This document shows, one piece after another, positions 17,070 through 54,336 of a DNA stretch of 64,000 bases. Made by a program: the position numbers and the translations under genes. The notes below the pieces were generated by a model. The model worked only from the letters and a program-made list of their open reading frames with translations. It had not been told where the DNA came from and did no database searches. How positions within the stretch are numbered: the first letter of the stretch is position 1; every line of letters starts with the position of its first letter. Origin of the DNA: a virus; the IMG/VR virus record IMGVR_UViG_3300017917_001151, positions 18,852-82,851 of that record; one strand, written 5' to 3'.

Positions 17070-18050
17070 ATGTCTACCAATTTTCAAGAAATTCCATTTC
17101 AAAACATAGTTCGATTTGGTCAACGAACAATGTTAACCAAACCCTTGTTTGCCGTAAGTTGGATCCTAGGTAGGTTCTGCAACTACAAATGTAGTTATTG
17201 TTGGCCATATGCAAGGTCAGACAAACCTGATCACGAAAGTTTAGAAACTTACAAATCTACTATCAACGAAATCAAAAGACAGGCTAGACAAAATGGATTC
17301 ACAGAATTCCACTGGAGCTTTAGTGGCGGCGAACCAACCGCTTACAAACATTTAAATGATCTCATCAAACACCTCGACGAACAGGAAAGTCCTTACCAAA
17401 GTGTTCACATGACTACTAATTTGAGTCCCGGTAGTAGTTGGTGGAAAACATGGTGTAACAATACTAGCTTATTGCAAAGAAGAAGTATTACTGCTAGTTT
17501 TCACGAGGAATTTGCCAAAGAGACAGAGTTTGGAGACAAGTGTCTGCAACTGTTAAATGAATATGTACACGTGACTATCAATCAGGTTATGGTTCCGGAA
17601 AAATTTTACGAAACATATGAACAGTGCCAACGATTTCATAAGAGGGGTATTAATGTTACTCTTAAACCACAAAGTGATCCTACAGCCAGTTTTATTGTAG
17701 ATGGCTACACAGAAGATATGATTAATCTTATGCAAACAGGATTTCCTCAGGAATCATTTGGAGAAGAAGTTTATCAAATAGCGTTATACGACACAGAAGG
17801 TAGAGAATATTTGTTTGACCAGGCAGAACGATTTAATACTTTTGGATTCAATAAATTTCAGGAATGGTCTTGTAATTCTGGATATCAAAGTGTTATAATA
17901 AGAGGCAACGAAGTTAAGCGTTCTTATAGCTGCCACGATCAGCCGTTAGGAAATATTTTAACAGGATTTAATTTGTTCGCTGAACCTAAAAAATGTATCA
18001 CACCTAGTTGTGTTAGTTCAGCAGACAGTAAGATACCAAAATGCAAATAG
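17070..18050 (+). CDS. Radical SAM protein, group A (C-terminal Cys-rich twitch/SPASM-like region)
   Basis: CNYKCSYC, GGEPT, C-terminal CNSG...C..C. Confidence 0.92.
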   Translation: MSTNFQEIPFQNIVRFGQRTMLTKPLFAVSWILGRFCNYKCSYCWPYARSDKPDHESLETYKSTINEIKRQARQNGFTEFHWSFSGGEPTAYKHLNDLIKHLDEQESPYQSVHMTTNLSPGSSWWKTWCNNTSLLQRRSITASFHEEFAKETEFGDKCLQLLNEYVHVTINQVMVPEKFYETYEQCQRFHKRGINVTLKPQSDPTASFIVDGYTEDMINLMQTGFPQESFGEEVYQIALYDTEGREYLFDQAERFNTFGFNKFQEWSCNSGYQSVIIRGNEVKRSYSCHDQPLGNILTGFNLFAEPKKCITPSCVSSADSKIPKCK

Positions 18051-18631
18051 ATACAGAACATTTACATCACTGGATGCAGGCAATACGCCAAAGTCCGGAT
18101 CCTATGCGTACTATGGACGCATTCTGGTCGGGGCAACTTAAAAGCAAAGAGTGGTTGATCACAAATCTACGTAAGCACGTTAACAAGTTTGTTACTGTAG
18201 ATATTCATGGAGGTTGGGTAGGAGTATTGGCTAGTATGCTGTTCCAGAGCGATGTTCCTATTCTTAATATTCGTAGCATAGACATAGATCCTAATTGCGA
18301 ACCAATCGCTATCAATATGAACAAGATAGAAGAGATGGTGGGAAAATTTCAGGCAGTAACATCTGATATGTGTACCGTTAGCAGTAATGCTGATGTTGTT
18401 ATCAATACTAGCTGCGAACACATAACACAAGAACAATATGATCTATGGCTGACTGGTCTTCCTCATGATAGGTTATTGGTACTACAGAGCAACAATTATA
18501 ACATTCCAGAGCACGTTAGAATAGCCAATGACCTAGAAGAATTTAAACAACAATGCCATGTTAGTGTGTTATGGGCAGGTGAACTAGAACTACCATTGTA
18601 TAAGCGGTTTATGATTATAGGAAAAAAATAA
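18041..18631 (+). CDS. Class I SAM-dependent methyltransferase-like protein
   Basis: DIHGGWVG, IDID and INTSCEH motifs. Confidence 0.7.
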   Translation: MQIDTEHLHHWMQAIRQSPDPMRTMDAFWSGQLKSKEWLITNLRKHVNKFVTVDIHGGWVGVLASMLFQSDVPILNIRSIDIDPNCEPIAINMNKIEEMVGKFQAVTSDMCTVSSNADVVINTSCEHITQEQYDLWLTGLPHDRLLVLQSNNYNIPEHVRIANDLEEFKQQCHVSVLWAGELELPLYKRFMIIGKK

Positions 18632-18654
18632 TATGTAATCATATTATTGATAAA

Positions 18655-19647
18655 ATGGAATTAATTGAAATAAAACAAGACGGATGGGATCCAGAAACAT
18701 TGTGGGTCGAACTAACTATCGGAAATATCTGCAATTTTAAATGTTGGTATTGTTTTCCGGGGTACAACGACGGCAGTATAAAGTGGCCGGACTACGATCT
18801 GTTGATTTCTAATCTTTCTCATTTGTTGGATTATTATCAAACACATACAGATAAGAAAAAATTTGCTATTCATTTATTAGGTGGCGAAATTATTTTTTGG
18901 AAGAGATTCGTCGACCTTTCTAAATTTTTAAAAGAAAATTATAACTGTGTAATCATATTAACAACAAATGCTTCTAAAAATATAGATTGGTGGGAAGAAT
19001 CTGTTGGATGGTTAGACATTGTTCATATAAGTGTTCATCATGAATTTTCAAATCCTAAACATATAATCGATGTAGCAGATTTTTTATACGACAAAAAAGT
19101 AGAAGTTGAGGTAAATGTATTCATGGATCCCTTTAAATGGGAAACATGCGCCGACATAGTTGAAGCGTTGAAAAACAGCAAAAATGTTTGGGATATAAAT
19201 TACAAAGAAATCCAATTTGATATACATAGAAGATATAACAAAGACCAAGATGAGTTACTCAATAAAGTAAACGCAAGGTCGTCAAACAAAGACAAAAAAT
19301 TTGTCATAGCACCGATGTCTCATAGACATTTTGTAAAAGGTGTTGATGTTAACGGAAAAGAACAATCCTACGGATTTAATGATTTACTTTCTCAAAGAAA
19401 CAACGAATTTAAAGGTTGGGACTGTAATGTTGGAGTAGATTGGATTGCCGTTCATGCAGACGGAACAGTTTCTGGAATTTGTAGAAATGGTTTATACAAA
19501 GATGGAAAAACTTATAATATTTTTGATCTAAATTTTAAAGAACAGTTCAACCCATCTATTACCAGTTCTATTTGTACAACTGATCGTTGTTGGTGTATAT
19601 TTGAAGTTAATATGCCTAAAAGAAAAATCATACCAATTTTATCATGA
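18655..19647 (+). CDS. Radical SAM protein, group A
   Basis: CNFKCWYC, GGE, CNVG...C..RCWC. Confidence 0.92.
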   Translation: MELIEIKQDGWDPETLWVELTIGNICNFKCWYCFPGYNDGSIKWPDYDLLISNLSHLLDYYQTHTDKKKFAIHLLGGEIIFWKRFVDLSKFLKENYNCVIILTTNASKNIDWWEESVGWLDIVHISVHHEFSNPKHIIDVADFLYDKKVEVEVNVFMDPFKWETCADIVEALKNSKNVWDINYKEIQFDIHRRYNKDQDELLNKVNARSSNKDKKFVIAPMSHRHFVKGVDVNGKEQSYGFNDLLSQRNNEFKGWDCNVGVDWIAVHADGTVSGICRNGLYKDGKTYNIFDLNFKEQFNPSITSSICTTDRCWCIFEVNMPKRKIIPILS

Positions 19648-21194
19648 AGCATCACGTTTTATTTTTTTCATTATCCGGTAAACGATGGGAACGAGCTCTA
19701 TGGTCTCATAGAGTCGCTACCTTTTTGCGAATGAACGATTGGGATGCCGAAGTAATTGATTTTGCTTCTTTTTGGAAACTAATAGAACTTCAAGAACTTG
19801 TTAGAAGTCGTGTCTCGAATAAAACTGTGATGTTTTGTTTTGGAACTGCATTTTTAAATCCGTGGAGCCCCTATATGAATGAATTTATAGCGTGGCTTAA
19901 AACAGAATATCCAACCATTCCTGTGGTAGTGGGTGGAAATAATGCATTGGTAACTCCTGCTGTTGGTGTAGATTATTGGGTTGACAGTTATGGAGAGAAC
20001 GCTGTTCTTTCTCTTTGCAGACACCTTATTGGAACATTAGGCGCACCTTTACTAACTGATCCCGCATTCTTCGGTTCAAAGAAAGTTATTAGAGGACTTT
20101 ATCATTATCCTAGTGCTCCGTTAGACAGTTATCTAGTAGATTACGAAGAACGTGATTTCATGAGTCCCTATGAATGTCCTCAGATAGAAACTGCACGTGG
20201 TTGTATGTTTAGTTGTTCTTACTGTAACTTTCCTATTATAGGACAAGCTAAAGACGTAAGTGTGAGCAAAGAAGAATTTAAACGTCAGATGCAGACAGGC
20301 TATGAAAAGTGGGGTATTAAGAATTGGCGGGTAATGGATGAAACATTTAATGACCGTCCAGAGAAATTGCAAAAGTATGCAGACGCAGTAGACGAGCTAG
20401 GATACAATCCGTGGATATGTGGTTTTGCTCGCGGCGACCTAGTTGTTAAACATCGAGAGCATTGGGACACTTATATTAGATTAGGATTCCTTGGCCACAG
20501 CATGGGCATTGAAACTTTTAACAAAGAAGCAGGTCGACTTGTACGCAAGGGCATGGATCCAGATAAACTTAAAGAAGGTCTGCTAGAATTTCAAGCATAC
20601 ACAGACATACATGCACCTAGACGTTATAGGGCAAACATACAAATGATCTGTGGTATCCCGGGTGAAAGTACCGAATCATGGAACGACTCGTTGCAATGGC
20701 TCAACACATATTGGTTAAGACAAAGCGCCAGCGCACATATACTAGAAGTTCCAGATTATGATGAAACATTAACTAACCAAAGTCGTTTTACTAAAGAATT
20801 AGTTAGCAATGGTCTAATTAAATTAGATTCTAGGCAGAATCCCGGATATGAAGTTTCTAAAGATAATAACGGAAATGTAATATTTAAATCTACAACCCCA
20901 CGTGGAGGCGGCGTTGGTTCGACTAGAAACGATGTTGTGATATGGAAACACAACAATATGGATTGGTATCAGGCTCAGCAACTAGTAAGTGATTTTTATT
21001 CTGAAAACGGATTTAAGGGTCTTAGAGGCTGTAACCCTTTTCTATCAGATAGGTTATTTCCGTATTACCAAACAGATGTCTATGAAGATGTATACGATAT
21101 TAGATTAAGTGATATTGATACAGCTGATCAAAAATATAATGACATTCTACAAAATTATATTAACAAAAAGTTAAGTTGGAGTCCCAGTGTTTAA
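19644..21194 (+). CDS. B12-binding-type radical SAM protein, group B
   Basis: N-terminal flavodoxin-like domain (VVVGG, YGE); ETARGCMFSCSYC; DETFN; GIET. Confidence 0.88.
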   Translation: MKHHVLFFSLSGKRWERALWSHRVATFLRMNDWDAEVIDFASFWKLIELQELVRSRVSNKTVMFCFGTAFLNPWSPYMNEFIAWLKTEYPTIPVVVGGNNALVTPAVGVDYWVDSYGENAVLSLCRHLIGTLGAPLLTDPAFFGSKKVIRGLYHYPSAPLDSYLVDYEERDFMSPYECPQIETARGCMFSCSYCNFPIIGQAKDVSVSKEEFKRQMQTGYEKWGIKNWRVMDETFNDRPEKLQKYADAVDELGYNPWICGFARGDLVVKHREHWDTYIRLGFLGHSMGIETFNKEAGRLVRKGMDPDKLKEGLLEFQAYTDIHAPRRYRANIQMICGIPGESTESWNDSLQWLNTYWLRQSASAHILEVPDYDETLTNQSRFTKELVSNGLIKLDSRQNPGYEVSKDNNGNVIFKSTTPRGGGVGSTRNDVVIWKHNNMDWYQAQQLVSDFYSENGFKGLRGCNPFLSDRLFPYYQTDVYEDVYDIRLSDIDTADQKYNDILQNYINKKLSWSPSV

Positions 21195-22239
21195 GTTTGA
21201 TCAATTAGAACAAATCCATTTAGAGATTACAAATAATTGTCAGGCGTCTTGTCCTATGTGTACAAGAAACATTAACAGCGGATTAGAGAATCCATTAATT
21301 AAAATACAGAATTGGACACTAGGCGACTTTAAGACCATAATGTCTGAAGAAGTATTGAAACAAATTAAGAGTTATTATTTCTGCGGAAACTTTGGTGATC
21401 CGATCATTAATAATGACCTTATTGAAATGTGTAGGTATACAACAGAAGTATCTCCAGATGTTCGAGTCGCTATTCATACAAACGGTGGCGCAAGAAGCAA
21501 AGCATGGTGGACACTATTAGCTCACGCACTTCCAAAAAATCATTCAGTGATGTTCGCCATAGACGGGTTAGAAGATACTCATCAGCTGTATAGGGTAGGA
21601 ACGACCTATGACGATGTTGTTGAAAATGCTCGTGCTTTTATTCTAGCAGGCGGTAATGCCGAATGGGTGTTTATTAAATTTAAACACAACGAACATCAGG
21701 TAGACGAAGCAAGACGTAGAGCTAACAAATTAGGGTTTTCTAAATTTACATTAAAAAATAGTAGACGTTTCATTGTAGAACCTTTTGTAAAAGTATTGGA
21801 TAGAAACGGAAACTTAACACACGTCATTGAACCTTCAACTGAAACTCCTCTGAAGTTTATCGATAGAAAAATAATAGATTCTTATAAACAGATAGTTGAT
21901 AGTTCTGTCATAAGTTGCGAAGTCCAAAAAAATAAAGAAGTGTATATAGATGCTTACAAAAATTTATATCCGTGTTGTTGGTTAGGCAATGTACCTTATA
22001 GTTCTGGAAATTTAGAATTCGAAGTACAGAAAGAAACTAAACAACAGCATCTAGAACTTGTAAAAAAATTAGGAAATACTAATACGATAGATAGATCTAT
22101 AAAAGACATTATCAACAGTAACGAATATCAAACTGTTTGGCATGATTATTGGAACATAAACAAACTAATTGTTTGTGCTAGAACCTGTAGTGTCAACACT
22201 AGTTTTTCTAAACCAAAGGATCAATTCGTATGCGAATAA
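21187..22239 (+). CDS. Radical SAM/SPASM protein, group C
   Basis: CQASCPMC, GNFGDP, PCC and C...C motifs. Confidence 0.92.
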   Translation: MFKFDQLEQIHLEITNNCQASCPMCTRNINSGLENPLIKIQNWTLGDFKTIMSEEVLKQIKSYYFCGNFGDPIINNDLIEMCRYTTEVSPDVRVAIHTNGGARSKAWWTLLAHALPKNHSVMFAIDGLEDTHQLYRVGTTYDDVVENARAFILAGGNAEWVFIKFKHNEHQVDEARRRANKLGFSKFTLKNSRRFIVEPFVKVLDRNGNLTHVIEPSTETPLKFIDRKIIDSYKQIVDSSVISCEVQKNKEVYIDAYKNLYPCCWLGNVPYSSGNLEFEVQKETKQQHLELVKKLGNTNTIDRSIKDIINSNEYQTVWHDYWNINKLIVCARTCSVNTSFSKPKDQFVCE

Positions 22240-23075
22240 AAATTGCTCCTGAATACTCTGCAGACTATTTAGAAATAGAACGACCACAACCATTGTCGGA
22301 CAATCTTTTAGAAAAGACAATACAAGATGTAATGTCTGGAAAAATTAATTCTAAGTTTGATTTAGTCTACGACGAATTTAAAAAAGAAATGCCAGGGTGG
22401 TTATTAAAAAGTAGAGTAAATCATTTAACCGGATTAGATACCTTTACACGTTTAGACATTATAAATGGTTGCACTCAGTTTATCGACAACCTGTATATGC
22501 AGGGACCTGTGCAAGTACTTCGCGGTGATTATAGATACCACCAAAGATTAGGATTAGCGTATGTTAAGGATGTGGGCTCGCTGATTCCAGATATTCCTTT
22601 AATCGTAGCAATGCCGTTTCCTAGCATTGGTGCTCCACATCAAGACATGGAGGAAATACTATATGAATGCAAACTTAAAAATATTAAAGTGCATATTGAT
22701 GGTGCTTGGATCAGTTGCTGCAGGGATATTAATTTTGATTTTAGTAATGAAGTTATTAGATCCGTTGGCATCAGCCTTAGTAAAGGTCTTGGTTTAGGTT
22801 GGAACAGAATAGGCTTACGTTGGACTAAAGACACTGAAGCAGATAGTATTACAATCATGAATGACTTTAACATGAACCTACGTGCTACTGCTATGATCGG
22901 TCTTCACTTTATTCGAAATATAGAAGTAGATTATCTTTGGAATACACACAAAGATAGATACTATAAAGTTTGTAAAGATTTTGAGCTAACACCTACTAAG
23001 GCTATATATCTAGCATTAAAAGATAATCAACCAGTCGGTGTTAGCCCATTAATAAGATATTTAGAAAATGAGTGA
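22230..23075 (+). CDS. PLP-dependent fold-type-I enzyme-like protein
   Basis: HIDGAW and SLSKG..GW.RIG motifs. Confidence 0.6.
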   Translation: MRIKIAPEYSADYLEIERPQPLSDNLLEKTIQDVMSGKINSKFDLVYDEFKKEMPGWLLKSRVNHLTGLDTFTRLDIINGCTQFIDNLYMQGPVQVLRGDYRYHQRLGLAYVKDVGSLIPDIPLIVAMPFPSIGAPHQDMEEILYECKLKNIKVHIDGAWISCCRDINFDFSNEVIRSVGISLSKGLGLGWNRIGLRWTKDTEADSITIMNDFNMNLRATAMIGLHFIRNIEVDYLWNTHKDRYYKVCKDFELTPTKAIYLALKDNQPVGVSPLIRYLENE

Positions 23076-24453
23076 AAAGATCAAAAGCTACATTAAGTTA
23101 ATTGAAGAACGTACAGGTTCTCCTACGTTCTGTGTTTTGCCATGGGTGCATATGGCTACCAGACCAAATGGAGATTGCAGATTATGCTGTGTAGCTAATG
23201 CCAGCGGTGCTCAAACGGGCGACCATGCAGTTGGCCTCGTTAGAAAAGAAAATGGACGACCAGCTAACTTCGGAGTAGATACACCCGTTGAAGCATTTAA
23301 TAATGAGTACATGAAGAATGTAAGATTAACGATGCTAGATGGAAAAGTTCCTGCAAGTTGTACAAAATGTTTTGAAGAAGAAAGCAACGGCGTTGTTAGT
23401 AAACGTTTGTGGGAAATGTACGATTGGAACAATGATGGCTTTGACTTTAATAAGGTCATCGATGAAACAGCAGAGGACGGAACAGTTCCTCCTGTAATTA
23501 GATACCTGGATCTAAGATTAGGTCATACCTGCAATTTGAAATGCGTTATGTGTAGTCCTCATGACAGCAGCCGTTGGGTACAAGATTATGACAAGGTTAT
23601 GTCATCAGTTAAAAGTCCTATCGTATTAAAACAAATTAATTGGGACGGAAACGAATTTAACAATTACTGGTATGAAAAGCCAGAATTCTGGGACGATATA
23701 TTTGCACAGATTCCAAACATAAAGAAACTATACTTTGCAGGCGGCGAGCCTTTGATGATTAAAGAACATCAAAGATTCTTAGAAGAAATTATTGCTAGAG
23801 GATATGCAAAAGAAATAAGTCTAAGATATAACTCTAATGGTATATTGTTAACAGAAAAAATGATAGAGTTGTGGACTAATTTTAAACACGTAAAGTTTAA
23901 TGTTAGCATTGATGCCGAGGGTGATCGTAATTACTATATTCGTTATCCTACAGAATGGAATGATGTAATCCGTGTGTTGAAACGCTTAGACGAAACACCC
24001 GATAATATTTCTTCTAGTATTGAAGTAGCAGTCCAGGCATTGAATGCAGAGCATTTACCTGACTTTGCTAAATTTGTTTTAGGACAAAATTTTAAAAAAG
24101 TCAATAAACATTATCTATCAGAGTATCAAGCAGGTGGCGGAATATTCAGTATGCACCTGTTATTCATTCCTACATTTTTATCTGCACGTATTCTTCCTAA
24201 GGAACATAAAGAACGTATTCGTAAAAAGTTTATGGAATTTAAACAATGGCTATGGGACAACTATAGACAAGACGATGACTTCTGGGTCAATAATCCTTAC
24301 GGCTGGGCACGTTGGGAAGCCATATTAAAATTTATCGAAGCAGAAGATCACAGTTATATGCTTCCAGACTTTAAAGATTATTTTAACAATTTAGATAATA
24401 TCAGAAGTTTAAATGCATCAACAACATTTCCGGAGTTAGGAGATATACTTTGA
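23068..24453 (+). CDS. Radical SAM protein with N-terminal twitch domain, group D
   Basis: FCVLPW, LCC and CTKC, then CNLKCVMC and GGEP. Confidence 0.92.
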   Translation: MSEKIKSYIKLIEERTGSPTFCVLPWVHMATRPNGDCRLCCVANASGAQTGDHAVGLVRKENGRPANFGVDTPVEAFNNEYMKNVRLTMLDGKVPASCTKCFEEESNGVVSKRLWEMYDWNNDGFDFNKVIDETAEDGTVPPVIRYLDLRLGHTCNLKCVMCSPHDSSRWVQDYDKVMSSVKSPIVLKQINWDGNEFNNYWYEKPEFWDDIFAQIPNIKKLYFAGGEPLMIKEHQRFLEEIIARGYAKEISLRYNSNGILLTEKMIELWTNFKHVKFNVSIDAEGDRNYYIRYPTEWNDVIRVLKRLDETPDNISSSIEVAVQALNAEHLPDFAKFVLGQNFKKVNKHYLSEYQAGGGIFSMHLLFIPTFLSARILPKEHKERIRKKFMEFKQWLWDNYRQDDDFWVNNPYGWARWEAILKFIEAEDHSYMLPDFKDYFNNLDNIRSLNASTTFPELGDIL

Positions 24454-43242: not shown

Positions 43243-43246
43243 GTTG

Positions 43247-46862: not shown

Positions 46863-47542
46863 AATACGAATACTATTATAATAATGTTCCAGGACAAGGA
46901 TTATCTAGAAATAATTTAATCTATACGAGCCTAGTCAGCGAAGATAAAAAAGTTTTTGTTCAATGGTATTACAATGATGGAGTATATCATGCTGGCCAAA
47001 ACGAAGTTGTCGATCCAGAAAAAATGGAAGAAAAATGGCAGCGTGAAATTAAGTATCTTAAACTAATGAAAGGTGCCTATCCAGAATTAGTTCCTAACAT
47101 CTTAGATATCGATTATAGTCATAAAAAAATATACTTAGAAATAGACGGATTAGATTTTTGGAATAGAGCAAACTGCACAACAGAAAATTATGATTCAGTT
47201 TTACCCAATTGGCGAGAACAGATGTTAAACATAGTAAAAGCACACAAGAGTTTAGGACTTCACAAATACAGTATGCATCCTAGTAGCTACTTTGTAGTGA
47301 ATGGCGAATTAAAAAGCATCAATTATTTTTTTACATATCATAAATCAGAACCTATTATCAGTATTAAAGAAGTGGAAAGTCATATACACTCTAACCGCCA
47401 AACGGAAATGCGTAAACATCTAGAAACACTAGGAATAGAATGGAGTAAGCCGCAGCCCTGGAGCACCATGGATAAACTATGTTGGGAAAGTTTTAGAACC
47501 AACTACCCTTCAGACTTCATAAATATGGTAGGGGCCATTTAA
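46859..47542 (+). CDS. Kinase-fold-like protein
   Basis: REIKYL, MHPSSY and KSINY motifs; paralog of 29053-29727. Confidence 0.5.
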   Translation: MKYEYYYNNVPGQGLSRNNLIYTSLVSEDKKVFVQWYYNDGVYHAGQNEVVDPEKMEEKWQREIKYLKLMKGAYPELVPNILDIDYSHKKIYLEIDGLDFWNRANCTTENYDSVLPNWREQMLNIVKAHKSLGLHKYSMHPSSYFVVNGELKSINYFFTYHKSEPIISIKEVESHIHSNRQTEMRKHLETLGIEWSKPQPWSTMDKLCWESFRTNYPSDFINMVGAI

Positions 47543-47543: not shown

Positions 47544-48122
47544 ATGTTTAAAGAAACTATCTATCTCAATGACGAATTGTTTAAAAATGTAAGGCTTAAT
47601 ATCCTTGATAATCCAGTAGCGAATTTAGAAGTTCCAGAAACATGGGATAACGTTACTGAATTTGGGGTATGGTGGGTTAAAGCAGGAATGCCTATTCGAT
47701 TCCCTAACGGAGCTGAGGTTTATAGAACAGACGATGCTACAGCAGTTGCACTATTTCGTCAGGGTAGATTTCAAATAGAGTTATATCTTATCCATCCTCA
47801 CCCTCAATTACAAGATCACGAACATCCGGGAGTAGAGGTTATTAAAGTTCGCATGGGCAATAATAACGAAACTGTAGGATTTACAGATGCATTAACTGAC
47901 GGAAGAGCGCACGGTGCTGGCGTAAGGTTAGAAGCAGAAACTATCGGGTTCCCATTGATTGCTATACAGCATTGGAAAACTAGAGATCCGATTACTATCT
48001 CTGCTATGTGGAAAGGGAAAACTGTTGGCCCTATGCAGGAAAAATTAATCAGACGTTTCCACCCAGATGCATATGTTATTGACGGATACGCGGACATTAC
48101 ACGAAAGATGACTGATGTATAA
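47544..48122 (+). CDS. Cupin-like protein
   Basis: HEHPGVE and AHG motifs. Confidence 0.55.
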   Translation: MFKETIYLNDELFKNVRLNILDNPVANLEVPETWDNVTEFGVWWVKAGMPIRFPNGAEVYRTDDATAVALFRQGRFQIELYLIHPHPQLQDHEHPGVEVIKVRMGNNNETVGFTDALTDGRAHGAGVRLEAETIGFPLIAIQHWKTRDPITISAMWKGKTVGPMQEKLIRRFHPDAYVIDGYADITRKMTDV

Positions 48123-48669
48123 AATGGTTAGATGGTCTAAAGATTTAGACCTTACAGAATTTTATAAAGATGCAGAACGCAGAGGGTTTGTAAATAACGC
48201 TAGTCAAAAAATGCTAGTAGACAGTCTAGCAAAAGAACGTGAATGGTGCGTATGGATTCTCTATTATAATGATGTAGCTGTGGGCAGTGTAGGAGCACAT
48301 TCATTTCCCGAGATGGGAGAGAATGCATATCGGATAGCTGTTCGTACCTGCATATTCACAGACAAACTACCATTAACTACATTACGTACACGTAACCAAA
48401 TAGTCACTCATCAACACGCCACAAGTCAATTCTTAATTCCTGCCTGTATTGACTGGGCACCAGCGAACTCATCACTATATATTACAAGTAATGAAAGCGA
48501 TACAGGTACCCAAAAATTGGTACACAGAATATTTGGACCAGCAATGGAAGAAACTGGCCAAATGAAACGCATTAAAGAAATTTTTTATCGAGGAACAGAG
48601 CAGACAGTTTGGCAGTTGTTTCCTGAAAAATTTTACGAAGAATTAAACAAATACAAAAGGTGGATTTAA
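48115..48669 (+). CDS. GNAT-like hypothetical protein
   Basis: VGSVGAH..YRI..R and LYITSN fit GNAT topology by eye. Confidence 0.45.
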   Translation: MYKMVRWSKDLDLTEFYKDAERRGFVNNASQKMLVDSLAKEREWCVWILYYNDVAVGSVGAHSFPEMGENAYRIAVRTCIFTDKLPLTTLRTRNQIVTHQHATSQFLIPACIDWAPANSSLYITSNESDTGTQKLVHRIFGPAMEETGQMKRIKEIFYRGTEQTVWQLFPEKFYEELNKYKRWI

Positions 48670-50109
48670 ATGAAATATCATAGTGGTGGGCAGCACAACA
48701 TTGCATGGTGCGTACTAGATGTATTAGACAAATGCGACAATCTAGTAGCCAAAGACATTTCTATCAACACTATTGATTTCTTAATTCGCGGATTAATGGT
48801 CAACGAGTATGATGTATTTGTGGGAAAGGATGAACAAGAATTATTGTTAGAAGCTGTAAAAGAAAACAAATATTCTCATGCTGTTATTATATCCACCGGA
48901 ACCTATTTAAGAACCAGTGAAAAATTATTTAAAGAAGTAGAAAATATTTGTCAGCAGGATTTTTTTATTGCAGGTCATGTTCTTAATAGAGGAGATTTTT
49001 ATTTAGAATTACACAAACAATTCTATATAATGAATTTAAAAGATTACCAAGAATTAGGATGTCCCGATATAGAGGAAGGTGCATGGTTTGTTGACGATCC
49101 CCACGAAGAATTTGAACCGAATATTACAGAATTTTCCGACGGCGGCGACGAAGTTATTGAATCAATGTCTATAGGCACAAATAAAAAAGTCTACACATCT
49201 AAATTGCACGGATGGAATATACTTAAACTAGCACTCGAAAACAATAAAAAGACCATAGATGTTGGACAAAGAATTCGTGTAGCAAAACATTATCTATATC
49301 ACGAATACGAGCATGTTTTTATTAACCAATATCCTAAGATCTTTCATCTACAATTATTTGCACACAACGTTGTAGCACCGTGGAACTCTGATCGTGTTTA
49401 TAAAACCCTTCCCTTTGATGGCCCAGTGGAACAATATATTACTCTAGGCACAGGCTTGAACTGGATTAGAAATTTAACGATGATCGGGTATACTGACGAT
49501 ACACGAGTAGTATTCACGGACATAAATCATAACTGTCTTAGATTTATGAAAGAATTAGTTACTACATGGGACGGTGTAGATTACGATCAGTTTTATCATT
49601 CTTTTGAACAATTTTTCCCTAACGGTGTTCCGGACTTTGTTTTTAAAACATTAACTGCTAAAGAAGAGTTTGAAGAATTTAAAAAGTTTTTTGATGACTG
49701 GCCGTCTACTTGGAATAAGGTTAAGAAATTAAATTTTGATTATAAACTAATTGACTACATGGCCGACTACGATCTAACATGGATAGATCCGAATAAGAAG
49801 ACCCTAATGAATTTTAGTGATCTGTTTAATCATTCGCCGTTGATTCCTTTCCAAAGTGTAAAATTTAGAATAGGTGCTGAAAACAGATTAATCAATAATC
49901 TTAATAATATCAATCCCGATATTGTTGCTATATTCACAACTAGATCTGCAACAGGATATAAGTCGTACGACGATACATGGAATGATGATTCTATTGCCTT
50001 TGTCGGAAAAATCAAAGATTTTAAATTGACAAATATCGGTGATTTAAAACCCTTACCGTGGCACGAACACGATTGGAAACCTTTTGGAAGAAGACCATTA
50101 GGTCTTTAA
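48670..50109 (+). CDS. Two-domain hypothetical protein (C-terminal part possibly SAM-binding fold)
   Basis: 479-aa ORF; YITLGTG..VVFTDIN motif. Confidence 0.6.
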   Translation: MKYHSGGQHNIAWCVLDVLDKCDNLVAKDISINTIDFLIRGLMVNEYDVFVGKDEQELLLEAVKENKYSHAVIISTGTYLRTSEKLFKEVENICQQDFFIAGHVLNRGDFYLELHKQFYIMNLKDYQELGCPDIEEGAWFVDDPHEEFEPNITEFSDGGDEVIESMSIGTNKKVYTSKLHGWNILKLALENNKKTIDVGQRIRVAKHYLYHEYEHVFINQYPKIFHLQLFAHNVVAPWNSDRVYKTLPFDGPVEQYITLGTGLNWIRNLTMIGYTDDTRVVFTDINHNCLRFMKELVTTWDGVDYDQFYHSFEQFFPNGVPDFVFKTLTAKEEFEEFKKFFDDWPSTWNKVKKLNFDYKLIDYMADYDLTWIDPNKKTLMNFSDLFNHSPLIPFQSVKFRIGAENRLINNLNNINPDIVAIFTTRSATGYKSYDDTWNDDSIAFVGKIKDFKLTNIGDLKPLPWHEHDWKPFGRRPLGL

Positions 50110-50750
50110 GGTAGATAATCGATAGTTACAAATTCGCCCTCGACTCCTTGACGTTCTGCTGCATCGAGCATTAGTTTTTTCCATTCGGGAAGCGAATCGT
50201 GTCTAGACATAATAACAAAATATCTATCTTCATCGCTGTTATTCCATAATCCGTGATAATAATGAATGTTCATAGCATAGGCATGTCCGGGCTCCATCTT
50301 TAAATCTGGACTGCCATCCTGCCACTTCCACACAAATCCTTCGGGACTATTTAGAACAAAAGAAATATTATCTATTAGGGGACCTTTGCTGTCGCTATGA
50401 TAGTTAATATGGCCGCCTGCTTCTAGTAACATGAATCGAATTCGTCCATACTTATTGCAGGGAAAATGATTTAAAAAATAATTTTTAGTAACTGGTGCGA
50501 GGTCAGATGCTTCAGTCCAGTGCATTAGTCTACTGGCTTCTTGAGGATCGGTAATTCCGTATTGTTTCCATGCTCCGGTCTTATGCTCATCAAGGCCGTG
50601 TAATACTAAACCATGCCATCCTTTACTTTCTGTATCTCTGTGCTGCGAAAATCTGTATCTAAGAGAACGTGCTTCTTCGAGCATTTCTTCGTAGGGAAAT
50701 TCGATGTTTAAATCTAAGTACTTGGCCTTTGATGCAAAATATTCTCTCAT
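50106..50750 (-). CDS. Asp/Asn beta-hydroxylase-like oxygenase
   Basis: RIRFMLL..GG.I.YHSD and HGLWNNSDEDR motifs. Confidence 0.8.
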   Translation of the reverse strand: MREYFASKAKYLDLNIEFPYEEMLEEARSLRYRFSQHRDTESKGWHGLVLHGLDEHKTGAWKQYGITDPQEASRLMHWTEASDLAPVTKNYFLNHFPCNKYGRIRFMLLEAGGHINYHSDSKGPLIDNISFVLNSPEGFVWKWQDGSPDLKMEPGHAYAMNIHYYHGLWNNSDEDRYFVIMSRHDSLPEWKKLMLDAAERQGVEGEFVTIDYLP

Positions 50751-50751: not shown

Positions 50752-51510
50752 TTAATCCTTTAATGTTAGGGTTTCGATATCGTCCCAAATATCACCTTCT
50801 AACTCTTTAAATGCTGAAATAAAATTAAACACATTATCAACAGGCAATGTTTTTAAAATTTCTAATTTAACATTCCACCATCGTGTGGCTAACAATTCTT
50901 CTTTTATTTTATCAGGAAACCTATCTCTAATCTTTTTAGAAGTTACGCCACCTACTATTGTGTAAGGTTCTACATCTTTGGTAACAACAGCATTGGCAGC
51001 AACTACAGCCCCGTCGCCTATTTTTATGCCAGGCATAACAATAATACCATCGCCGAGATAAACATCGTTTCCAATAACAACAGGTTCGCTATTCATAGCT
51101 CTACTGCTAGTCCTATTTCTAGGAATATCTAAAATTTCAAGCTCGTAATCAGAATAATTTGATTCCCTGGCCATGATGGTATCTGGATTAATACTTACTC
51201 CGGAAAAGTTATGCATGCCTGCAGCGATAGTACAGCGATATCCTATACCGCTATGCCTACCCATAAAGACATTTGATCGCATATAACCACCACTTCGAAT
51301 GCTAGAATATGCACCGATAAAAATTCTATTTGGAGCATCTTGAAAACTCGGACTCCAATTCATAGAACCTTTTTCGAATAATGTTCCTTTTAGATGAGCA
51401 ATATCCTGACGCCTAATTTTGTAATCGTCTAATTGGTTCTCTACCAAATCGATATCTGCAGATATGGTCCTATTTAAAAATTCTTGGAGTTTATCTTCTA
51501 TGTGCTTCAT
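50752..51510 (-). CDS. Hexapeptide-repeat O-acetyltransferase (CatB/Vat-like)
   Basis: IGNDVYLG, IGDGAVVAANAVVTKDVEPYTIVGG and WWN motifs. Confidence 0.88.
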   Translation of the reverse strand: MKHIEDKLQEFLNRTISADIDLVENQLDDYKIRRQDIAHLKGTLFEKGSMNWSPSFQDAPNRIFIGAYSSIRSGGYMRSNVFMGRHSGIGYRCTIAAGMHNFSGVSINPDTIMARESNYSDYELEILDIPRNRTSSRAMNSEPVVIGNDVYLGDGIIVMPGIKIGDGAVVAANAVVTKDVEPYTIVGGVTSKKIRDRFPDKIKEELLATRWWNVKLEILKTLPVDNVFNFISAFKELEGDIWDDIETLTLKD

Positions 51511-51515
51511 GATGA

Positions 51516-51545
51516 TATTTATAGGGCAAACTGGATACATAAATA
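51516..51545. promoter_or_regulatory. Divergent TAAATA motifs
   Basis: Minus 51521-51516 and plus 51540-51545, each 5 nt from an ATG (51510, 51551). Confidence 0.7.
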
Positions 51546-51550
51546 GATTT

Positions 51551-52111
51551 ATGGATTTTACTGATATTAAAGCTGCGGCTGTAGATTTAGAAGTTAACGA
51601 TGATCAGTTAACCAACGAATTATTGTCAATACCAGACGACAAATGGAACACTGGTAAAGATCAATATTCTGGACACCTATGGAAAAATATTTTTTTAACA
51701 AAAAATAATAAAGAAGAATTTGATGATTTTAAATCTGCAAAGGCTATCCCTCATTCGGCATGGAAGTGGGACGATGATTTAAATATACCGTACATAAAAT
51801 CTCTAGTTGAGGCATTACCTGTTAAACATATTGGCATGGTTAGAGCATTTATTTTAGATGGACCTCTGGTAATGCATGTTGATAGTAACGAAACAACTCC
51901 AGAAGATATATCTTACAAATTGGGATTAACTATCGCTTCTAAGTTAGAGTCGCCTATGACAATGCCAGGTATAACTGTAGAAGAAAAATATGTGTTATTC
52001 AACGATAGTTTCCCTCACGGATTTCCAGACGGTCAAGGTCAGCAAATTAGTATACGTGTGTTTGGCGACTTTGACTACGACAAATTTAAAATTAAAAAAA
52101 TTTACAAATGA
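51551..52111 (+). CDS. Asp/Asn beta-hydroxylase-like oxygenase
   Basis: MHVD and FND..PHG motifs. Confidence 0.6.
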   Translation: MDFTDIKAAAVDLEVNDDQLTNELLSIPDDKWNTGKDQYSGHLWKNIFLTKNNKEEFDDFKSAKAIPHSAWKWDDDLNIPYIKSLVEALPVKHIGMVRAFILDGPLVMHVDSNETTPEDISYKLGLTIASKLESPMTMPGITVEEKYVLFNDSFPHGFPDGQGQQISIRVFGDFDYDKFKIKKIYK

Positions 52112-52563
52112 ACGTAGAATACTTAGACCTTCCAAAAATTCCTGAAAATTTAATAGTTGACATATATCAAACTATTAGAAATACAGAACCTAATCTACGT
52201 CACTCTGTTCCTGAAGGAACAGATGCTGAAAAACACAATGCCTGGAATAGTATAAAGGCCAGCGAACAGTTAAAAGAGTTTACACGTTCTATTTTTAATT
52301 TTGAACACGATGTACATATATTTGTATTATCGGGAGATCTTCCAATACATAAAGACAATACTAGAGATGTTGCCTATAATTATGTTCTGGAAACAGGAGG
52401 TGCGAGTACAAACTTCCATAATGAAAATAAAGAATTGATAGAAGAGCATAATATAGAAACTTTTAAGTGGCACAAATTAAATGTAAAAGAATTTCACAGT
52501 GTGTCTATTCCCCAGCCTCCCAGAGTGTTGGTTAGTGTATCTGTGTTTTGGAAAAATCAATGA
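52108..52563 (+). CDS. Cupin/2OG oxygenase-like protein
   Basis: IHKD, NY and FHSV...R motifs. Confidence 0.6.
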   Translation: MNVEYLDLPKIPENLIVDIYQTIRNTEPNLRHSVPEGTDAEKHNAWNSIKASEQLKEFTRSIFNFEHDVHIFVLSGDLPIHKDNTRDVAYNYVLETGGASTNFHNENKELIEEHNIETFKWHKLNVKEFHSVSIPQPPRVLVSVSVFWKNQ

Positions 52564-53711
52564 ACATTCCTATTAATTTTAGAATAAATCAATTTTCAAA
52601 TATTCAATCTGATATATTTGAAAATGCTATTAACAATGTGCATGGACAAATCCTTAAAGAAACTATCAGCATTTGTCATCAATGTCATTATCATATTCCT
52701 GCATATACATATGTTTTAAACAATCAACTATGGTTAGTTAAACATTGTAAGACTCACGGAATTTCTCATCATATGATCGAAAGAGATTATGACTTTTATT
52801 CTAAATTAGTTTACATCACCAAAGAAGATACAAAACAAGACCTGCAGATTATTACAGAGGTAACAGATAGATGTAATATCGATTGTCCTCATTGCTATCA
52901 TATTCCAGATAATAAAATTGTTGATACTCCCATTCCGGAATTGATAGAAAAATTTAGGTCATGGAATCTAGATATGGAGAGGGCGATATTTGTTCTTGCA
53001 GGAGCAGAACCAACCCTAAGAAAAGATTTTCCAGAACTAGTTAAGACATTAAAAGAAACGTGGCCTTCTCGTGTTGTTGTATTAACTAACGGCATTAGAT
53101 ATCATGATAGAGATTTAGTACAGGCGTCTATTGATGCAGGACTAGATTCAGTATGTGTTGGATTAAATCATCCTAGCTATATTAATAATCCGACGATACG
53201 AAAAAAACAAATAGATGGAATTAATAATTGTTTTGAAATGGGATTAACTGTAGAAACTATTTCTTATACAATGTCTAGTGTATCCGAGCTACATGATATC
53301 TTAGAAGAAATTATGTCTAGTAATTGGCCTGCAAGATTTTTTAGAATTAGATACGGCAGCGATATAGGTCGTTATCCTGAACAGGAAAGATTGTATCTCA
53401 GCGACACATATAAACTTGTAAAACAATGGTGTGCGGATCACGGAAAAGAATTTAACGATCTTCCAGGAGATAACAATTTATATCATACGATGGTCGCAGT
53501 TGATGGAAAAGTAATTAGACTAATACAGTGGTGTGACGAAACTGATATTAATATGGAAGAATTAGACTGTGGACCATACGCAGATTTTTCTTCAGATGGA
53601 ATCACTAACTTTTTACATTCAGTTATTAGAAGAGATGTAGAAAAGAATCAAAAAATTATGTTGCCTGATACTGTACCAGAGAAATATAAATTTAAGCAGT
53701 CTTCCATGTAG
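52560..53711 (+). CDS. Radical SAM protein, group E
   Basis: CHQC...CKTHG, CNIDCPHC and GAEPT motifs; ATGA coupling at 52560. Confidence 0.9.
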   Translation: MNIPINFRINQFSNIQSDIFENAINNVHGQILKETISICHQCHYHIPAYTYVLNNQLWLVKHCKTHGISHHMIERDYDFYSKLVYITKEDTKQDLQIITEVTDRCNIDCPHCYHIPDNKIVDTPIPELIEKFRSWNLDMERAIFVLAGAEPTLRKDFPELVKTLKETWPSRVVVLTNGIRYHDRDLVQASIDAGLDSVCVGLNHPSYINNPTIRKKQIDGINNCFEMGLTVETISYTMSSVSELHDILEEIMSSNWPARFFRIRYGSDIGRYPEQERLYLSDTYKLVKQWCADHGKEFNDLPGDNNLYHTMVAVDGKVIRLIQWCDETDINMEELDCGPYADFSSDGITNFLHSVIRRDVEKNQKIMLPDTVPEKYKFKQSSM

Positions 53712-54336
53712 ACCCTGTAGATTCTAATTTTCTTCTCAAGAATTTTTTAGATTTTATATCAAACAAATCACCTGTCGGGAATCCGTTGATAAGGCACTCT
53801 CCGTCATCTGCAAATTCTACGGTATATCCCTCTTTGGTAGTAAAGTCAAACTGTTCAGAATTATAACCTAAAAATACAGGAGGTGGTTGCTCAGTCATTC
53901 CGTACCAATTAGCAACTAATTGAACTCCTTTACTTAAGAAGTCATCTATCATGGTTTGAGGAACAGGCCCGCTTCCAGTTACCATATAGCGAACACAGCT
54001 CATATCCATGTTTGACCACATCGGATTTTCTTTTAATATTTCCCAATGCCTAGGAATGAGAGCAATATATGTAGGTCGATGTTGATTAAATCTTTGCAGA
54101 TAATCAATGGCTTCAAATTTGGCAGAAATAAGTTTAGCACCTGCTCTATATGCTGGCATAGCACTAACGGTATAATGTGCAATAGTGTTTCCGGGAAATA
54201 CATCTAAAACAACATCATTGGATGTTAGCCCAATCTCCTTAATCGATCTCTGGATTGATTGTTCGATAAATTTCCACGAATGCACAATTTCTTTTGGGGG
54301 TTTAGTTGTTCCTGATGTTAGTAATGTTAAACTCAT
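53692..54336 (-). CDS. Minimal AMP-binding (ANL superfamily) enzyme
   Basis: TSGTTKPPK, YGMTE and TGDL core motifs in only 214 aa; TAAATA 4 nt upstream. Confidence 0.8.
   Translation of the reverse strand: MSLTLLTSGTTKPPKEIVHSWKFIEQSIQRSIKEIGLTSNDVVLDVFPGNTIAHYTVSAMPAYRAGAKLISAKFEAIDYLQRFNQHRPTYIALIPRHWEILKENPMWSNMDMSCVRYMVTGSGPVPQTMIDDFLSKGVQLVANWYGMTEQPPPVFLGYNSEQFDFTTKEGYTVEFADDGECLINGFPTGDLFDIKSKKFLRRKLESTGSTWKTA

Follow-up and report, generated by a model that had tools for sequence, protein, structure and literature searches.

An expanded island of radical SAM and oxygenase-like enzymes in a freshwater T4-like phage, with a possible role in decorating the virus particle

The DNA considered here is a stretch of 64,000 nucleotides (hereafter, the window), which forms the right-hand 64 kb of one 82,851-bp viral contig (IMG/VR record IMGVR_UViG_3300017917_001151); the analysis covered the 83 kb of phage genome that this contig holds. 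Between positions 17070 and 54354 the window carries an island of 37,285 bp with 45 open reading frames (ORFs), numbered g01 to g45, in which 15 radical S-adenosylmethionine (rSAM) proteins are interleaved with oxygenase-like proteins and other enzymes. It represents an enlarged version of a roughly 20-kb core (about 21 genes, with a median of 9 rSAM genes) that is widespread in a freshwater phage lineage, and this core has a single genomic position, flanked by the ThyX side and a tail-fibre gene. As to its function, we think, with due caution, that the island may be a pathway acting late in infection on a component of the virion surface, and we weigh this reading below against four others.

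A conserved core at one place in the genome

Related loci were collected from IMG/VR, where g27 recovered 7 loci and g04 recovered 75 loci at 74–90% identity. The relatives were read within stretches of about 21 kb (10 kb on either side), so that all their gene counts and island sizes are lower bounds. Among the loci of at least 20 kb, 37 of 39 carry at least 15 island-like genes, and each of these long loci has between 5 and 12 rSAM genes (median 9) and between 1 and 12 oxygenase-like genes (median 6). One gene order recurs nearly unchanged (arrowheads, where given, mark gene direction): g01 g05 g02 g16 g07 g08 g09< g10< (g11/g06)< g12> g04> g13> g14>, followed by g18< g25< g27< g33< g36> g38> g39> g40> g17<. 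Inserts found among the relatives are extra oxygenase, rSAM and methyltransferase genes, SGNH-like genes (weak matches) and UDP-glucose/GDP-mannose dehydrogenase genes. Because the order of the core stays fixed across proteins that are 40–88% identical, the comparison argues for one functional unit with a flexible shell, and not for a heap of unrelated auxiliary genes. A previous reading of this DNA, made without database searches (the sequence-only reading), had taken the island for a one-off supercluster; it is instead an expanded variant of a core conserved across a freshwater phage lineage. The same reading had proposed synteny across related phages as a check, and this check returned one gene order and one genomic place.

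Both junctions of the island are shared with relatives. On the left, the gene for ThyX and the gene at 16228–16731 precede g01 in one of them (L020). On the right, a metallophosphatase gene and a fibre gene stand at the island end in three loci (L001, L003 and L005), and a search with the fibre protein found the same junction in eight more (L164, L167, L169, L170, L176, L178, L180 and L181). In two loci (L006 and L007) two fibre-like genes lie inside the island. The lineage is also frequent in public metagenomes: homologues of g25, the most conserved non-rSAM protein of the core, form 947 clusters at 90% identity, and those among the 120 listed are 79–88% identical to g25 and lie on contigs of up to 245 kb. 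No tblastn match to g25 or g27 was found in 50,697 phage records, and g07 has only weak matches in cultured phages, namely in RsoM2USA, in Vibrio phages K566 and K567 and in one marine virus. In the Ralstonia phage RsoM2USA (L083, MG752970; a 344-kb jumbo phage), positions 11797–14596 hold an N-terminal twitch rSAM gene whose product is 23% identical to g07, with a g02 homologue (32%) two genes away; all genes there are annotated as hypothetical.

The island is a genuine phage block of 45 soluble enzymes. At 34 of its 44 ORF junctions the neighbours overlap or abut, the widest gap measures 65 nt and the strand switches 13 times. The GC content is 33–37% in the island and 40–44% in the flanks, and no membrane segment is predicted in any of the 45 proteins (the maximum 19-residue Kyte–Doolittle average is below 1.6). 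The right border is a terminator-like, GC-rich hairpin with flanking A and T runs (54355..54386; read by eye). The sequence-only reading had described about 45 contiguous genes with tiny gaps, almost wholly for tailoring enzymes and with no synthase, transporter or precursor among them; the ORF map and the Pfam, profile and fold assignments agree with it on each of these points. Domains of nonribosomal peptide synthetases (NRPS), polyketide synthases (PKS), RiPP recognition elements (RRE)/PqqD (RiPP standing for a peptide that is ribosomally synthesized and modified post-translationally), peptidases and exporters were all absent from the 45 proteins (Pfam, E <= 0.01). Likewise, no scaffold-forming enzyme (NRPS, PKS, cyclase or sugar nucleotidyltransferase) is found among these proteins, no gap in the island is of the size of a precursor gene, the free frames of the 83-kb contig yield no small protein that is Cys-rich or ends in a CH-x-S tail, and no riboswitch was detected in or before the island (Rfam, gathering thresholds).

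The genome belongs to an uncultured freshwater T4-like phage lineage. Its left flank begins with a giant fibre ORF of about 2,480 amino acids that crosses the left edge of the window (window positions 1–2442, plus upstream sequence); its first 45 residues are 56% identical to cyanophage gp9, the T4-type baseplate connector; further along, the ORF matches PHROGs of giant 'virion structural protein' type. Two paralogous fibre-like genes and ThyX (151.7 bits) also lie in this flank, where fibres are encoded at 8366–10316. Beside the fibre genes, the minus-strand segment 5359–8366 encodes a KDO8P/DAHP-synthase-family protein (237 bits), a glycosyltransferase-like protein (PHROG 1962; weakly GT8), a PTPS/QueD-like protein with TATAAATA ahead of its gene at 7770, and a 197-aa protein for which Pfam gave no match; the N-terminal motif of the latter presumably recalls sialyltransferase or Maf-type proteins. 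A Fe/Mn superoxide dismutase (PF02777, 75.4 bits) is encoded at 3476–4036 (minus strand), close to an island of oxygen-sensitive Fe-S enzymes. The gene at 16228–16731 (minus strand), which is consistently found ahead of g01, encodes a protein of 167 amino acids that is rich in Lys at its start and in Ser, Thr and Gly in its middle and ends in a coiled-coil-like part; it is conceivable that this protein is a target of the island.

The right flank holds a fibre-like gene with an Mtd_N domain, a metallophosphatase gene, ten tRNA genes and a GOLLD RNA. The fibre-like protein encoded at 54396–55553 includes about twelve tandem four-residue (N)VTG repeats, which make up a run of N-x-T sequons, and this repeat region also finds matches, in other contigs, among the giant fibre proteins that belong to the left structural module; we consider it a candidate target of the island. 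The tRNA array (60281–63997, minus strand) comprises two genes for Thr and one each for Arg, Gly, Met, Ala, Ser, Val, Pro and Lys, and a full-length GOLLD RNA lies inside it at 63601–63987 (minus strand; RF02032, 179.6 bits for a gathering score of 150). Among cultured phages even the nearest are distant, with one neighbouring protein 35% identical in PA5oct-like jumbo phages. With regard to the assembly, the Logan assembly of the probable source run (a pond metagenome) contains one contig of 19,308 nt over 35472–54779 with a single difference, which is not independent of the window, and contigs from a second study (X2 and X3) are short, near-identical pieces of genes of the expanded half that bridge no junction. 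The sequence-only reading had taken the island to be encoded by a phage and had named cellular flanks or a misassembly as grounds for abandoning this view; the flanks are those of a phage, and the island's junctions are found again in independent viral contigs.

Boxes that match the T4 late-promoter consensus stand ahead of the island's transcription units. The motif ATAAATA is depleted 2.4-fold in the window (13 copies for 30.8 ± 6.5 expected), and every one of the 13 is found either at the start of a gene on the same strand or no more than about 100 nt upstream of it, which for three of them requires an internal ATG as the start. The island accounts for ten of the copies; of the rest, one stands ahead of the fibre gene and another ahead of the PTPS gene. 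A box in each direction is present at every one of the island's five divergent junctions (Table 1), and at the first of them the plus-strand box reads TATAAATA, the late-promoter consensus of T4. In the relatives, ATAAATA lies near the start of g12 in 42 of 67 loci, as compared with 0.76% of random 110-nt stretches, and near the internal genes g13 and g01 in 0 of 48 and 0 of 37 loci, respectively. The depletion of the motif, with survival only at or just upstream of gene starts, is as expected of a promoter element that is selected against in stray copies. The boxes also bear on two gene models: the true start of g41 is probably downstream of the box at 51516, and that of g42 probably follows the box at 51539.

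Enzymes of the island

Fifteen of the 45 proteins match PF04055, 14 of them at or above the gathering score of 29.5, while g30 scores 28.8 bits and is 34–37% identical to g27, g33 and g44. The motif CxxxCxxC occurs exactly once in each of these 15 proteins and never in the other 30, which places the 15 in the radical SAM superfamily and leaves the count of the sequence-only reading as it was. An all-against-all BLAST divides them into five paralog groups (g01/g03/g08/g09; g04/g26/g29; g05/g16; g07/g10; g27/g30/g33/g44), exactly those that had been drawn before. The paralogs are old, with identities of 22–55%, and in several pairs each member has an orthologue of its own in related phages, so that the duplications predate the phage lineage. 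Diversification by paralog expansion, as had been proposed, is therefore borne out in the form of an old expansion.

The only rSAM proteins that reach the cut-off of a curated family are g07 and g10, full-length members of N_Twi_rSAM (NF033640, cut-off 170), to which the other 13 score at most 48.6 bits; above this cut-off the family has no member in 17 genomes examined (3 plus 14 controls). For those 13 proteins the matches to viperin, MoaA, QueE, peptide maturases, PhpK and hopanoid and ladderane methylases are sub-threshold and mostly N-terminal, and the best scores to PqqE (TIGR02109) are 21.9–26.7 bits for a cut-off of 381. The trio g04/g26/g29 resembles class B (B12-type) enzymes. Its alignments to the PhpK, ladderane and HpnR models span the N-terminal domain far under the cut-offs, those of g04 to PhpK-family and other B12 rSAM models being near full-length, yet sub-threshold. 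The B12-binding domain PF02310 is approached by g26 (18.7 bits) and g29 (19.1 bits), for a cut-off of 32.1, and gives no match in g04.

The four zinc-ribbon proteins g27, g30, g33 and g44 are, on profile similarity, distant kin of the archaeal lipid enzyme GDGT-MAS. Their family profile matches PDB entry 7tol (GDGT-MAS) with E 2e-29 over profile positions 3–196 of 351, that is, over the first part only, and their scores to the Tes/GDGT-MAS model NF045702 (58.6–74.9 bits) stay well under its cut-off of 450. A search of 185,579 species genomes with the profile of this one family gave 277 loci with cellular relatives of these proteins. In the best 80 of them the matches are partial and mostly about 22–37% identical (highest 42%), second-position co-hits occur in 8 loci and are all rSAM-to-rSAM, and no other island gene stands beside the rSAM gene.

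The sequence-only reading had counted about 19 oxygenases. Profile, fold or alignment supports 12 of these, and the other 7 (g24, g31, g34, g35, g37, g42 and g43) were recognized by motif alone. Membership of PF05118 (Asp/Arg_Hydrox) is found for two proteins, g21 and g40, and their kin may number up to eight more; g15 and g23 are joined to them by hhalign only (family I). In family II (g14, g18, g19, g20 and g22) the HxD motif is invariant and the distal His nearly so, and the links to cupins and to AspH are weak. The nearest look-alikes of family II in the ESM Atlas form viral-only clusters, and PF05118 appears on 19–21% of the members of neighbouring clusters, which we take as a lead. One member, g20 (33901–34272, minus strand), is short at the N-terminus and has apparently lost the distal iron-binding His, as read by eye from the sequences, so that it may be an inactive copy. 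In the family alignment of g12 the HxD motif, the distal H and the R are invariant, and the family profile matches Cpz10, the beta-hydroxylase of caprazamycin (Table 1). For g25, every named match of the AlphaFold2 (AF2) model in a Foldseek search of the PDB is a Fe/2-oxoglutarate (Fe/2OG) oxygenase, the fit being generic, with TM scores of 0.24–0.46 to all 2OG classes; its profile gave no meaningful match to PDB sequences. At an hhalign probability of at least 80, no link was seen of g12, g17, g24, g25, g31, g34, g35, g37, g42 and g43 to one another or to families I and II.

The predicted combination of a GT-A-like and a methyltransferase domain in g39 is new in this analysis. In the AF2 model, the best structural match of the N-terminal domain (VIA-align) is the capsid glycosyltransferase A64R of PBCV-1 (Z 10.6, root-mean-square deviation 3.4, 160 residues aligned), followed by viral A197 and the accessory domain of LH3, and the methyltransferase domain resembles NNMT and PNMT (Z 9.2). 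The sequence identity to A064R is only 4–5%, and the sole match of the g39 profile to PDB sequences is a chance-looking stretch of DEPDC5. No longer or fused form of g39 was found, which is weak evidence, and an AspH-bearing viral look-alike of 688 amino acids in the ESM Atlas (score 0.84) can be taken as a lead only.

Among the remaining enzymes, Pfam verified the earlier labels of g32 (methyltransferase), g41 (CatB-like, verified as a hexapeptide acyltransferase), g45 (AMP-binding) and g28 (short-chain dehydrogenase, for the N-terminus). The stand-alone fragment g45 covers profile positions 169–330 of the 384 of PF00501, and a homologue with 64% identity exists in another viral contig (L219); it could be a small protein conserved in its own right and not a remnant. 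Other labels fared less well. That of a methyltransferase for g02 found no Pfam or PDB-profile match, and that of a pyridoxal phosphate (PLP) enzyme for g06 was not recovered either, since none of 13 homologues matches a PLP family. For the QueC-like g11 the PP-loop similarity stands, albeit under the cut-off, and the QueC assignment does not: at E <= 0.001 only TilS_N matched (26.8 bits for a cut-off of 93.6). The kinase-like character of g13 and g36 is retained on weak Ser/Thr kinase profile matches (best E 6e-4). As for g38, described as similar to Gcn5-related N-acetyltransferases (GNAT), 9 of 13 homologues match PF21926 (FeeM) weakly (best E 0.033), with no PDB-profile match.

Table 1. 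Genes of the island, the adjoining fibre-like gene and paired promoter-like boxes (window positions)
Feature	Position	Strand	Evidence
g01 rSAM, group A	17070..18050	+	PF04055 43.6 bits; one CxxxCxxC
g02 core protein	18041..18631	+	no Pfam or PDB-profile match; in 32/39 long loci
g03 rSAM, group A	18655..19647	+	PF04055 33.4 bits; 30% identical to g08
g04 rSAM, class-B-like (B12-type)	19644..21194	+	PF04055 52 bits
g05 rSAM, pair with g16	21187..22239	+	PF04055 31.7 bits, weak SPASM; 45% identical to g16
g06 conserved core protein	22230..23075	+	no Pfam, no PDB-profile match
g07 rSAM, N-terminal twitch	23068..24453	+	NF033640 N_Twi_rSAM 388.6 bits (cut-off 170)
g08 rSAM, group A	24450..25487	+	PF04055 49.8 bits
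g09 rSAM, group A	25467..26372	-	PF04055 48.2 bits; in 39/39 long loci
g10 rSAM, N-terminal twitch	26365..27630	-	NF033640 336.2 bits (cut-off 170); in 39/39 long loci
g11 PP-loop ATPase-like	27617..28345	-	PF01171 19.8 bits, under cut-off 27
Paired boxes, junction g11/g12	28350..28379	both	TATAAATA at 28372 (+); TAAATA on minus strand at 28350
g12 Fe/2OG beta-hydroxylase, Cpz10-like	28385..29056	+	family profile to PDB 7v4f, E 1.6e-14
g13 protein-kinase-like, pair with g36	29053..29727	+	hhalign to g36, probability 100
g14 small cupin/oxygenase-like, family II	29720..30211	+	hhalign to g22, probability 99.9; invariant HxD
g15 AspH-like, family I	30213..30896	+	hhalign: g21, g23 probability 100; g40 92.9
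g16 rSAM, pair with g05	30905..31993	+	PF04055 33.7 bits
g17 TauD-family Fe/2OG dioxygenase	31988..32821	-	PF02668 94 bits, full profile (cut-off 27)
g18, g19, g20 tandem family II paralogs	32811..34272	-	39-44% mutual identity
Paired boxes, junction g20/g21	34299..34309	both	
g21 Asp/Arg beta-hydroxylase family	34338..34892	+	PF05118 37.1 bits (cut-off 22.6)
g22 cupin/oxygenase-like, family II	34876..35391	-	34% identical to g18
g23 AspH-like, family I	35391..35972	-	35% identical to g21; hhalign to g40, probability 95.7
g24 HxD..H motif only	35969..36592	-	no Pfam match
g25 Fe/2OG oxygenase fold	36592..37395	-	AF2 model, pLDDT 77.5
g26 rSAM, class-B-like	37388..38944	-	PF04055 74.2 bits; B12-binding 18.7 bits, under cut-off
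g27 zinc-ribbon rSAM, Tes/GDGT-MAS-like N-terminal half	38934..40004	-	PF23545 50.8, PF04055 52.5 bits
Paired boxes, junction g27/g28	40022..40033	both	
g28 short-chain dehydrogenase-like	40061..40624	+	PF00106 32.8 bits, residues 3-34 (N-terminal NAD motif only)
g29 rSAM, class-B-like	40621..42096	+	PF04055 41 bits; B12-binding 19.1 bits, under cut-off
g30 zinc-ribbon rSAM	42091..43218	-	PF23545 54.4, PF04055 28.8 bits; 34% identical to g27
Paired boxes, junction g30/g31	43224..43242	both	
g31 HxD motif only	43244..43993	+	no Pfam match
g32 class I SAM methyltransferase	43978..44637	-	Methyltransf_12 38.8 bits and five more methyltransferase models above cut-off
g33 zinc-ribbon rSAM	44634..45683	-	PF23545 46.2, PF04055 46.2 bits; 55% identical to g27
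Paired boxes, junction g33/g34	45692..45707	both	
g34 and g35 His-motif only	45724..46862	+	no Pfam match
g36 protein-kinase-like, pair with g13	46859..47542	+	hhalign, weak kinase profiles
g37 His-rich cupin-like motif only	47544..48122	+	no Pfam match
g38 core protein, weak GNAT-fold (FeeM-like) lead	48115..48669	+	PF21926
g39 two predicted domains	48670..50109	+	AF2 model, pLDDT 77.7: GT-A-like ~6-221, class I methyltransferase ~220-450
g40 Asp/Arg beta-hydroxylase family	50106..50750	-	PF05118 40.7 bits (cut-off 22.6)
g41 hexapeptide-repeat acyltransferase, Vat/CatB-like	50752..51540	-	Hexapep 35.5 bits; Vat/CatB models 91-98 bits, under cut-offs
g42 and g43 HxD motif only	51464..52563	+	no Pfam match
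g44 zinc-ribbon rSAM	52548..53711	+	PF04055 55.5, PF23545 41.9 bits
g45 stand-alone middle fragment of AMP-binding (ANL) enzyme	53692..54354	-	PF00501 62.3 bits
Fibre-like gene, Mtd_N domain	54396..55553	-	PF18454 26.7 bits; ATAAATA box at 55587

What the island may do

We think that the island may encode a cytoplasmic tailoring pathway that acts late and makes or alters a chemical decoration on a surface component of the virion, a reading that seems to us quite possible, though short of probable. The decorated component would be a fibre protein, the glycan that such a protein bears, or the two together. The reading is suggested by the constant place of the island beside fibre genes, which in two loci even lie inside it, and by the late-type promoter boxes that the island and the fibre gene have in common. 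Furthermore, it is consistent with the solubility of all the island proteins, with the abundance of beta-hydroxylase kin and the presence of kinase-like proteins, and with the signs of sugar chemistry, namely the predicted fold of g39, the nucleotide-sugar dehydrogenase in relatives and the sugar genes of the flank. Published 'host recognition clusters' of pelagimyophages point the same way, since they mix fibres, glycosyltransferases and rSAM cassettes according to the available text of Zaragoza-Solas et al. 2020 (PMC7029224).

The chemistry of such a pathway can be sketched from family kinship. The rSAM enzymes would functionalize unactivated carbons, with C-methylation by those of the class B type, oxidation or epimerization by the twitch type, and formation of C–C or C–X bonds by the GDGT-MAS-like zinc-ribbon proteins. 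Hydroxylation would fall to the Fe/2OG enzymes similar to AspH, Cpz10 and TauD, and activation of groups to the PP-loop, kinase-like and ANL-fragment proteins. The two-domain g39 might transfer a sugar, methylate it, or both, and capping would be left to the acyl- and methyltransferases. The product could vary among phages as cassettes of oxygenase and rSAM genes are gained, lost or duplicated.

Several points weigh against this proposal. The adjacency to fibre genes is the sole link to the virion. The promoter boxes are sequence matches only. The GT-A match of g39 is at the level of fold only, with a Z of about 10 for a stated background of 7–8, and its acidic motif, D-E-D in the consensus of 11 homologues, reads D-E-Q in this copy, in a column that is variable. 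The nearest solved relative of g12, Cpz10, acts on a small nucleoside, and the TauD, Vat/CatB-like and ANL families usually act on small molecules. To our knowledge, no pathway for decorating glycans or proteins has anything like 9–15 rSAM enzymes. Finally, with 83 kb covered of a genome that is probably much larger, a precursor or partners may lie elsewhere.

In a stronger form of the proposal, possible but doubtful in our opinion, the phage would apply rSAM maturation to its own particle, with some 10–15 rSAM enzymes and at least a dozen iron oxygenases modifying the tail fibre or its glycan. C-methyl, hydroxyl, cross-link and sugar-derived groups would be installed on the fibre protein or glycan, and shuffling of paralog cassettes would re-code the fibre surface, so that enzymatic chemistry, and not amino-acid change, would diversify host recognition or evade defences. 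If this were true, it would amount to a virion maturation without characterized precedent and to a large reservoir of new rSAM chemistry.

Among the alternatives, a RiPP-like or proteusin-like pathway, which would act post-translationally, and without any sugar, on a peptide or small protein whose gene lies outside the island, is unlikely and yet the one that survives best. Polytheonamide biosynthesis speaks for it, combining class B rSAM C-methylases, an rSAM epimerase and a Fe/2OG hydroxylase. The island offers AspH-family hydroxylases and protein-kinase-like proteins, and the sub-threshold matches of its rSAM proteins include SkfB, PqqE, HxsB/C and maturases of ranthipeptides and sactipeptides, but no peptide-maturase model is reached at its cut-off. 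Moreover, gaps of at most 65 nt leave no room for a precursor, and none was found in or beside the island, although one may lie elsewhere in the genome. No RRE/PqqD, leader peptidase or exporter domain was seen in the 45 proteins at the E-value given above, and no protein with a CH-x-S or Cys-rich tail in the 83-kb contig.

It is slightly less likely still that the island makes a free small molecule during infection, be it a nucleoside- or aminoglycoside-like metabolite, a modified sugar nucleotide or a cofactor of the pterin or pyrroloquinoline quinone (PQQ) type. The Cpz10-like g12, the TauD and Vat/CatB-like proteins, the ANL fragment, the short-chain dehydrogenase-like and PP-loop proteins and the methyltransferases would all be at home in such a pathway, and so would the PTPS/QueD-like flank gene and a zinc-ribbon domain named after a pterin methylase. 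Secondary-metabolite synthesis has been proposed for the ten tandem dioxygenases of Syn9 (in the available text of PMC2938197), and the rSAM genes of a T4-like Baikal phage of methylotrophs with 35% GC were read as PQQ synthesis (in the available text of PMC7678222). The island, however, has neither a scaffold-forming enzyme nor an exporter, the PqqE models give only 22–27 bits against their cut-off of 381, and no QueC or QueE model is reached. The late-type boxes and the fixed place beside fibre genes better fit a structural role, such as the virion decoration that we favour.

Hypermodification of nucleic acid, whether of the bases of the phage DNA or of the phage's own tRNAs, is improbable. 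Pathways for the hypermodification of thymidine draw on kinases, PLP enzymes, rSAM enzymes and acetyltransferases, and the contig has ThyX and a PTPS/QueD-like gene near the island, a ten-gene tRNA array, and in g11 a PP-loop-like protein with TilS_N similarity; the fold of g25 also matches AlkB, TET and thymine hydroxylases. That fold match is generic, however, extending to all 2OG classes, g11 is present in only 21 of the 39 long loci, and the kinase-like proteins resemble protein kinases, not P-loop nucleotide kinases. No match to DpdA, FolE, a QueC/QueE model, a DNA glycosyltransferase or TET/JBP was found in the 45 proteins at the thresholds used. The hallmarks of DNA hypermodification (5-hydroxymethyldeoxyuridine (5-hmdU) DNA kinase, aGPT-pyrophosphorylase, DpdA, FolE/QueE/QueC) are likewise absent from the general Pfam and NCBIfam matches, the presence of their models in these libraries being unconfirmed.

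The weakest alternative, very improbable in our view, is remodelling of the host envelope (lipopolysaccharide (LPS), lipid A or other lipids) during infection. It can call upon PF05118, which we take to include the lipid A hydroxylase LpxO as well, upon the kinship of the zinc-ribbon rSAMs with the lipid enzyme GDGT-MAS, upon weak matches of the class B rSAMs to hopanoid and ladderane models and of genes in relatives to GDSL-like families, and upon the KDO8P-synthase-family and GT8-like genes of the flank. LPS genes, too, are reported in the host recognition clusters of pelagimyophages (in the available text of PMC7029224). Nevertheless, membrane segments are predicted in none of the 45 proteins, the lipid-family matches are far under their cut-offs (Tes at best 74.9 bits against 450), and beyond the zinc ribbon the match to GDGT-MAS takes in only the first half of the rSAM core.

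Comparison with known systems

The proposed decoration of the virus particle has a distant counterpart in the chlorovirus PBCV-1, whose A064R (PDB 2p72/2p73) is the best structural match of the N-terminal domain of g39 (Z 10.6). A064R joins glycosyltransferase domains to a sugar methyltransferase domain, and in that system virus-encoded enzymes decorate a virion protein. The differences are considerable: the identity of g39 to A064R is minimal and its acidic motif is altered, and PBCV-1 uses no rSAM enzymes and infects a eukaryotic alga.

As for the rSAM proteins, the zinc-ribbon group shares its N-terminal zinc ribbon with GDGT-MAS/Tes and with the pterin methylase MJ0619 (PF23545), and with GDGT-MAS the first half of the rSAM core as well. 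Unlike Tes, however, the island proteins are phage-borne and soluble, measure about 350 amino acids rather than 526, and have some 150 C-terminal residues without a match. The twitch proteins g07 and g10 are full-length members of NF033640, and their membership says nothing about their chemistry because that family has no described function. With 13 of the 15 rSAM proteins and most of the oxygenases outside curated functional families, much unexplored enzymology is packed into the island.

Such arrays have been no more than glimpsed in published work. A literature search outside subscription journals and supplements gave no description or function for the island, and the phrases 'virus-encoded radical SAM', 'phage-encoded radical SAM', 'viral radical SAM' and 'phage radical SAM' occurred in no paper of the searched literature; such genes may be listed in the supplements of PMC7029224, PMC2938197 and PMC7678222. 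A preprint on amoC phages and the paper on S-SCSM2R deal with single rSAM genes of other kinds and were set aside. Closer to the island is VP_139 from Lake Baikal, a T4-like freshwater contig with 35% GC, rSAM proteins and several methyltransferases, whose rSAM genes were read as PQQ synthesis in the available text of Coutinho et al. 2020 (PMC7678222). VP_139 may belong to the same lineage as the island phage, and the PqqE scores given above lend no support to a PQQ reading for such genes.

The pelagimyophage 'host recognition cluster', in which rSAM cassettes stand among glycosyltransferases and tail fibres (Zaragoza-Solas et al. 2020, PMC7029224), resembles the island in that it is a large variable block in the structural region of T4-like aquatic phages, in this case pelagimyophages and cyanomyophages. 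In contrast, the island is of freshwater origin, the order of its core is conserved, and its prevailing enzymes are rSAM proteins and oxygenases, not glycosyltransferases. In the available text of that paper the rSAM cassettes are named in passing, and its freshwater group is without rSAM genes.

If the decoration reading is true, phages can make biosynthetic investments as large as bacterial natural-product clusters (here 37 kb in a fragment of 83 kb), and oxygen-sensitive radical chemistry and oxygen-dependent hydroxylases together finish phage particles. Since the lineage is abundant, as the 947 clusters of g25 homologues indicate, whatever the island makes is made on a large scale in lakes and ponds.

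The closest parallel to the oxygenases is found in the cyanophage Syn9, whose ten tandem dioxygenases were called unprecedented, with a guess at secondary metabolism, by Iyer, Abhiman, de Souza and Aravind 2010 (PMC2938197); in the available text of the same paper, tail-collar or collagen-like proteins are proposed as substrates of bacterial beta-hydroxylase operons. Both arrays belong to T4-like aquatic phages and consist of runs of unrelated small Fe/2OG families that include beta-hydroxylase types. As far as the available text describes it, the array of Syn9 holds dioxygenases only, whereas the island interleaves its oxygenases with 15 rSAM proteins and with kinase-like, PP-loop, GT-A/methyltransferase and acyltransferase proteins. 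In our opinion, the island should give a concrete handle on the old puzzle of why T4-like aquatic phages hoard arrays of dioxygenases.

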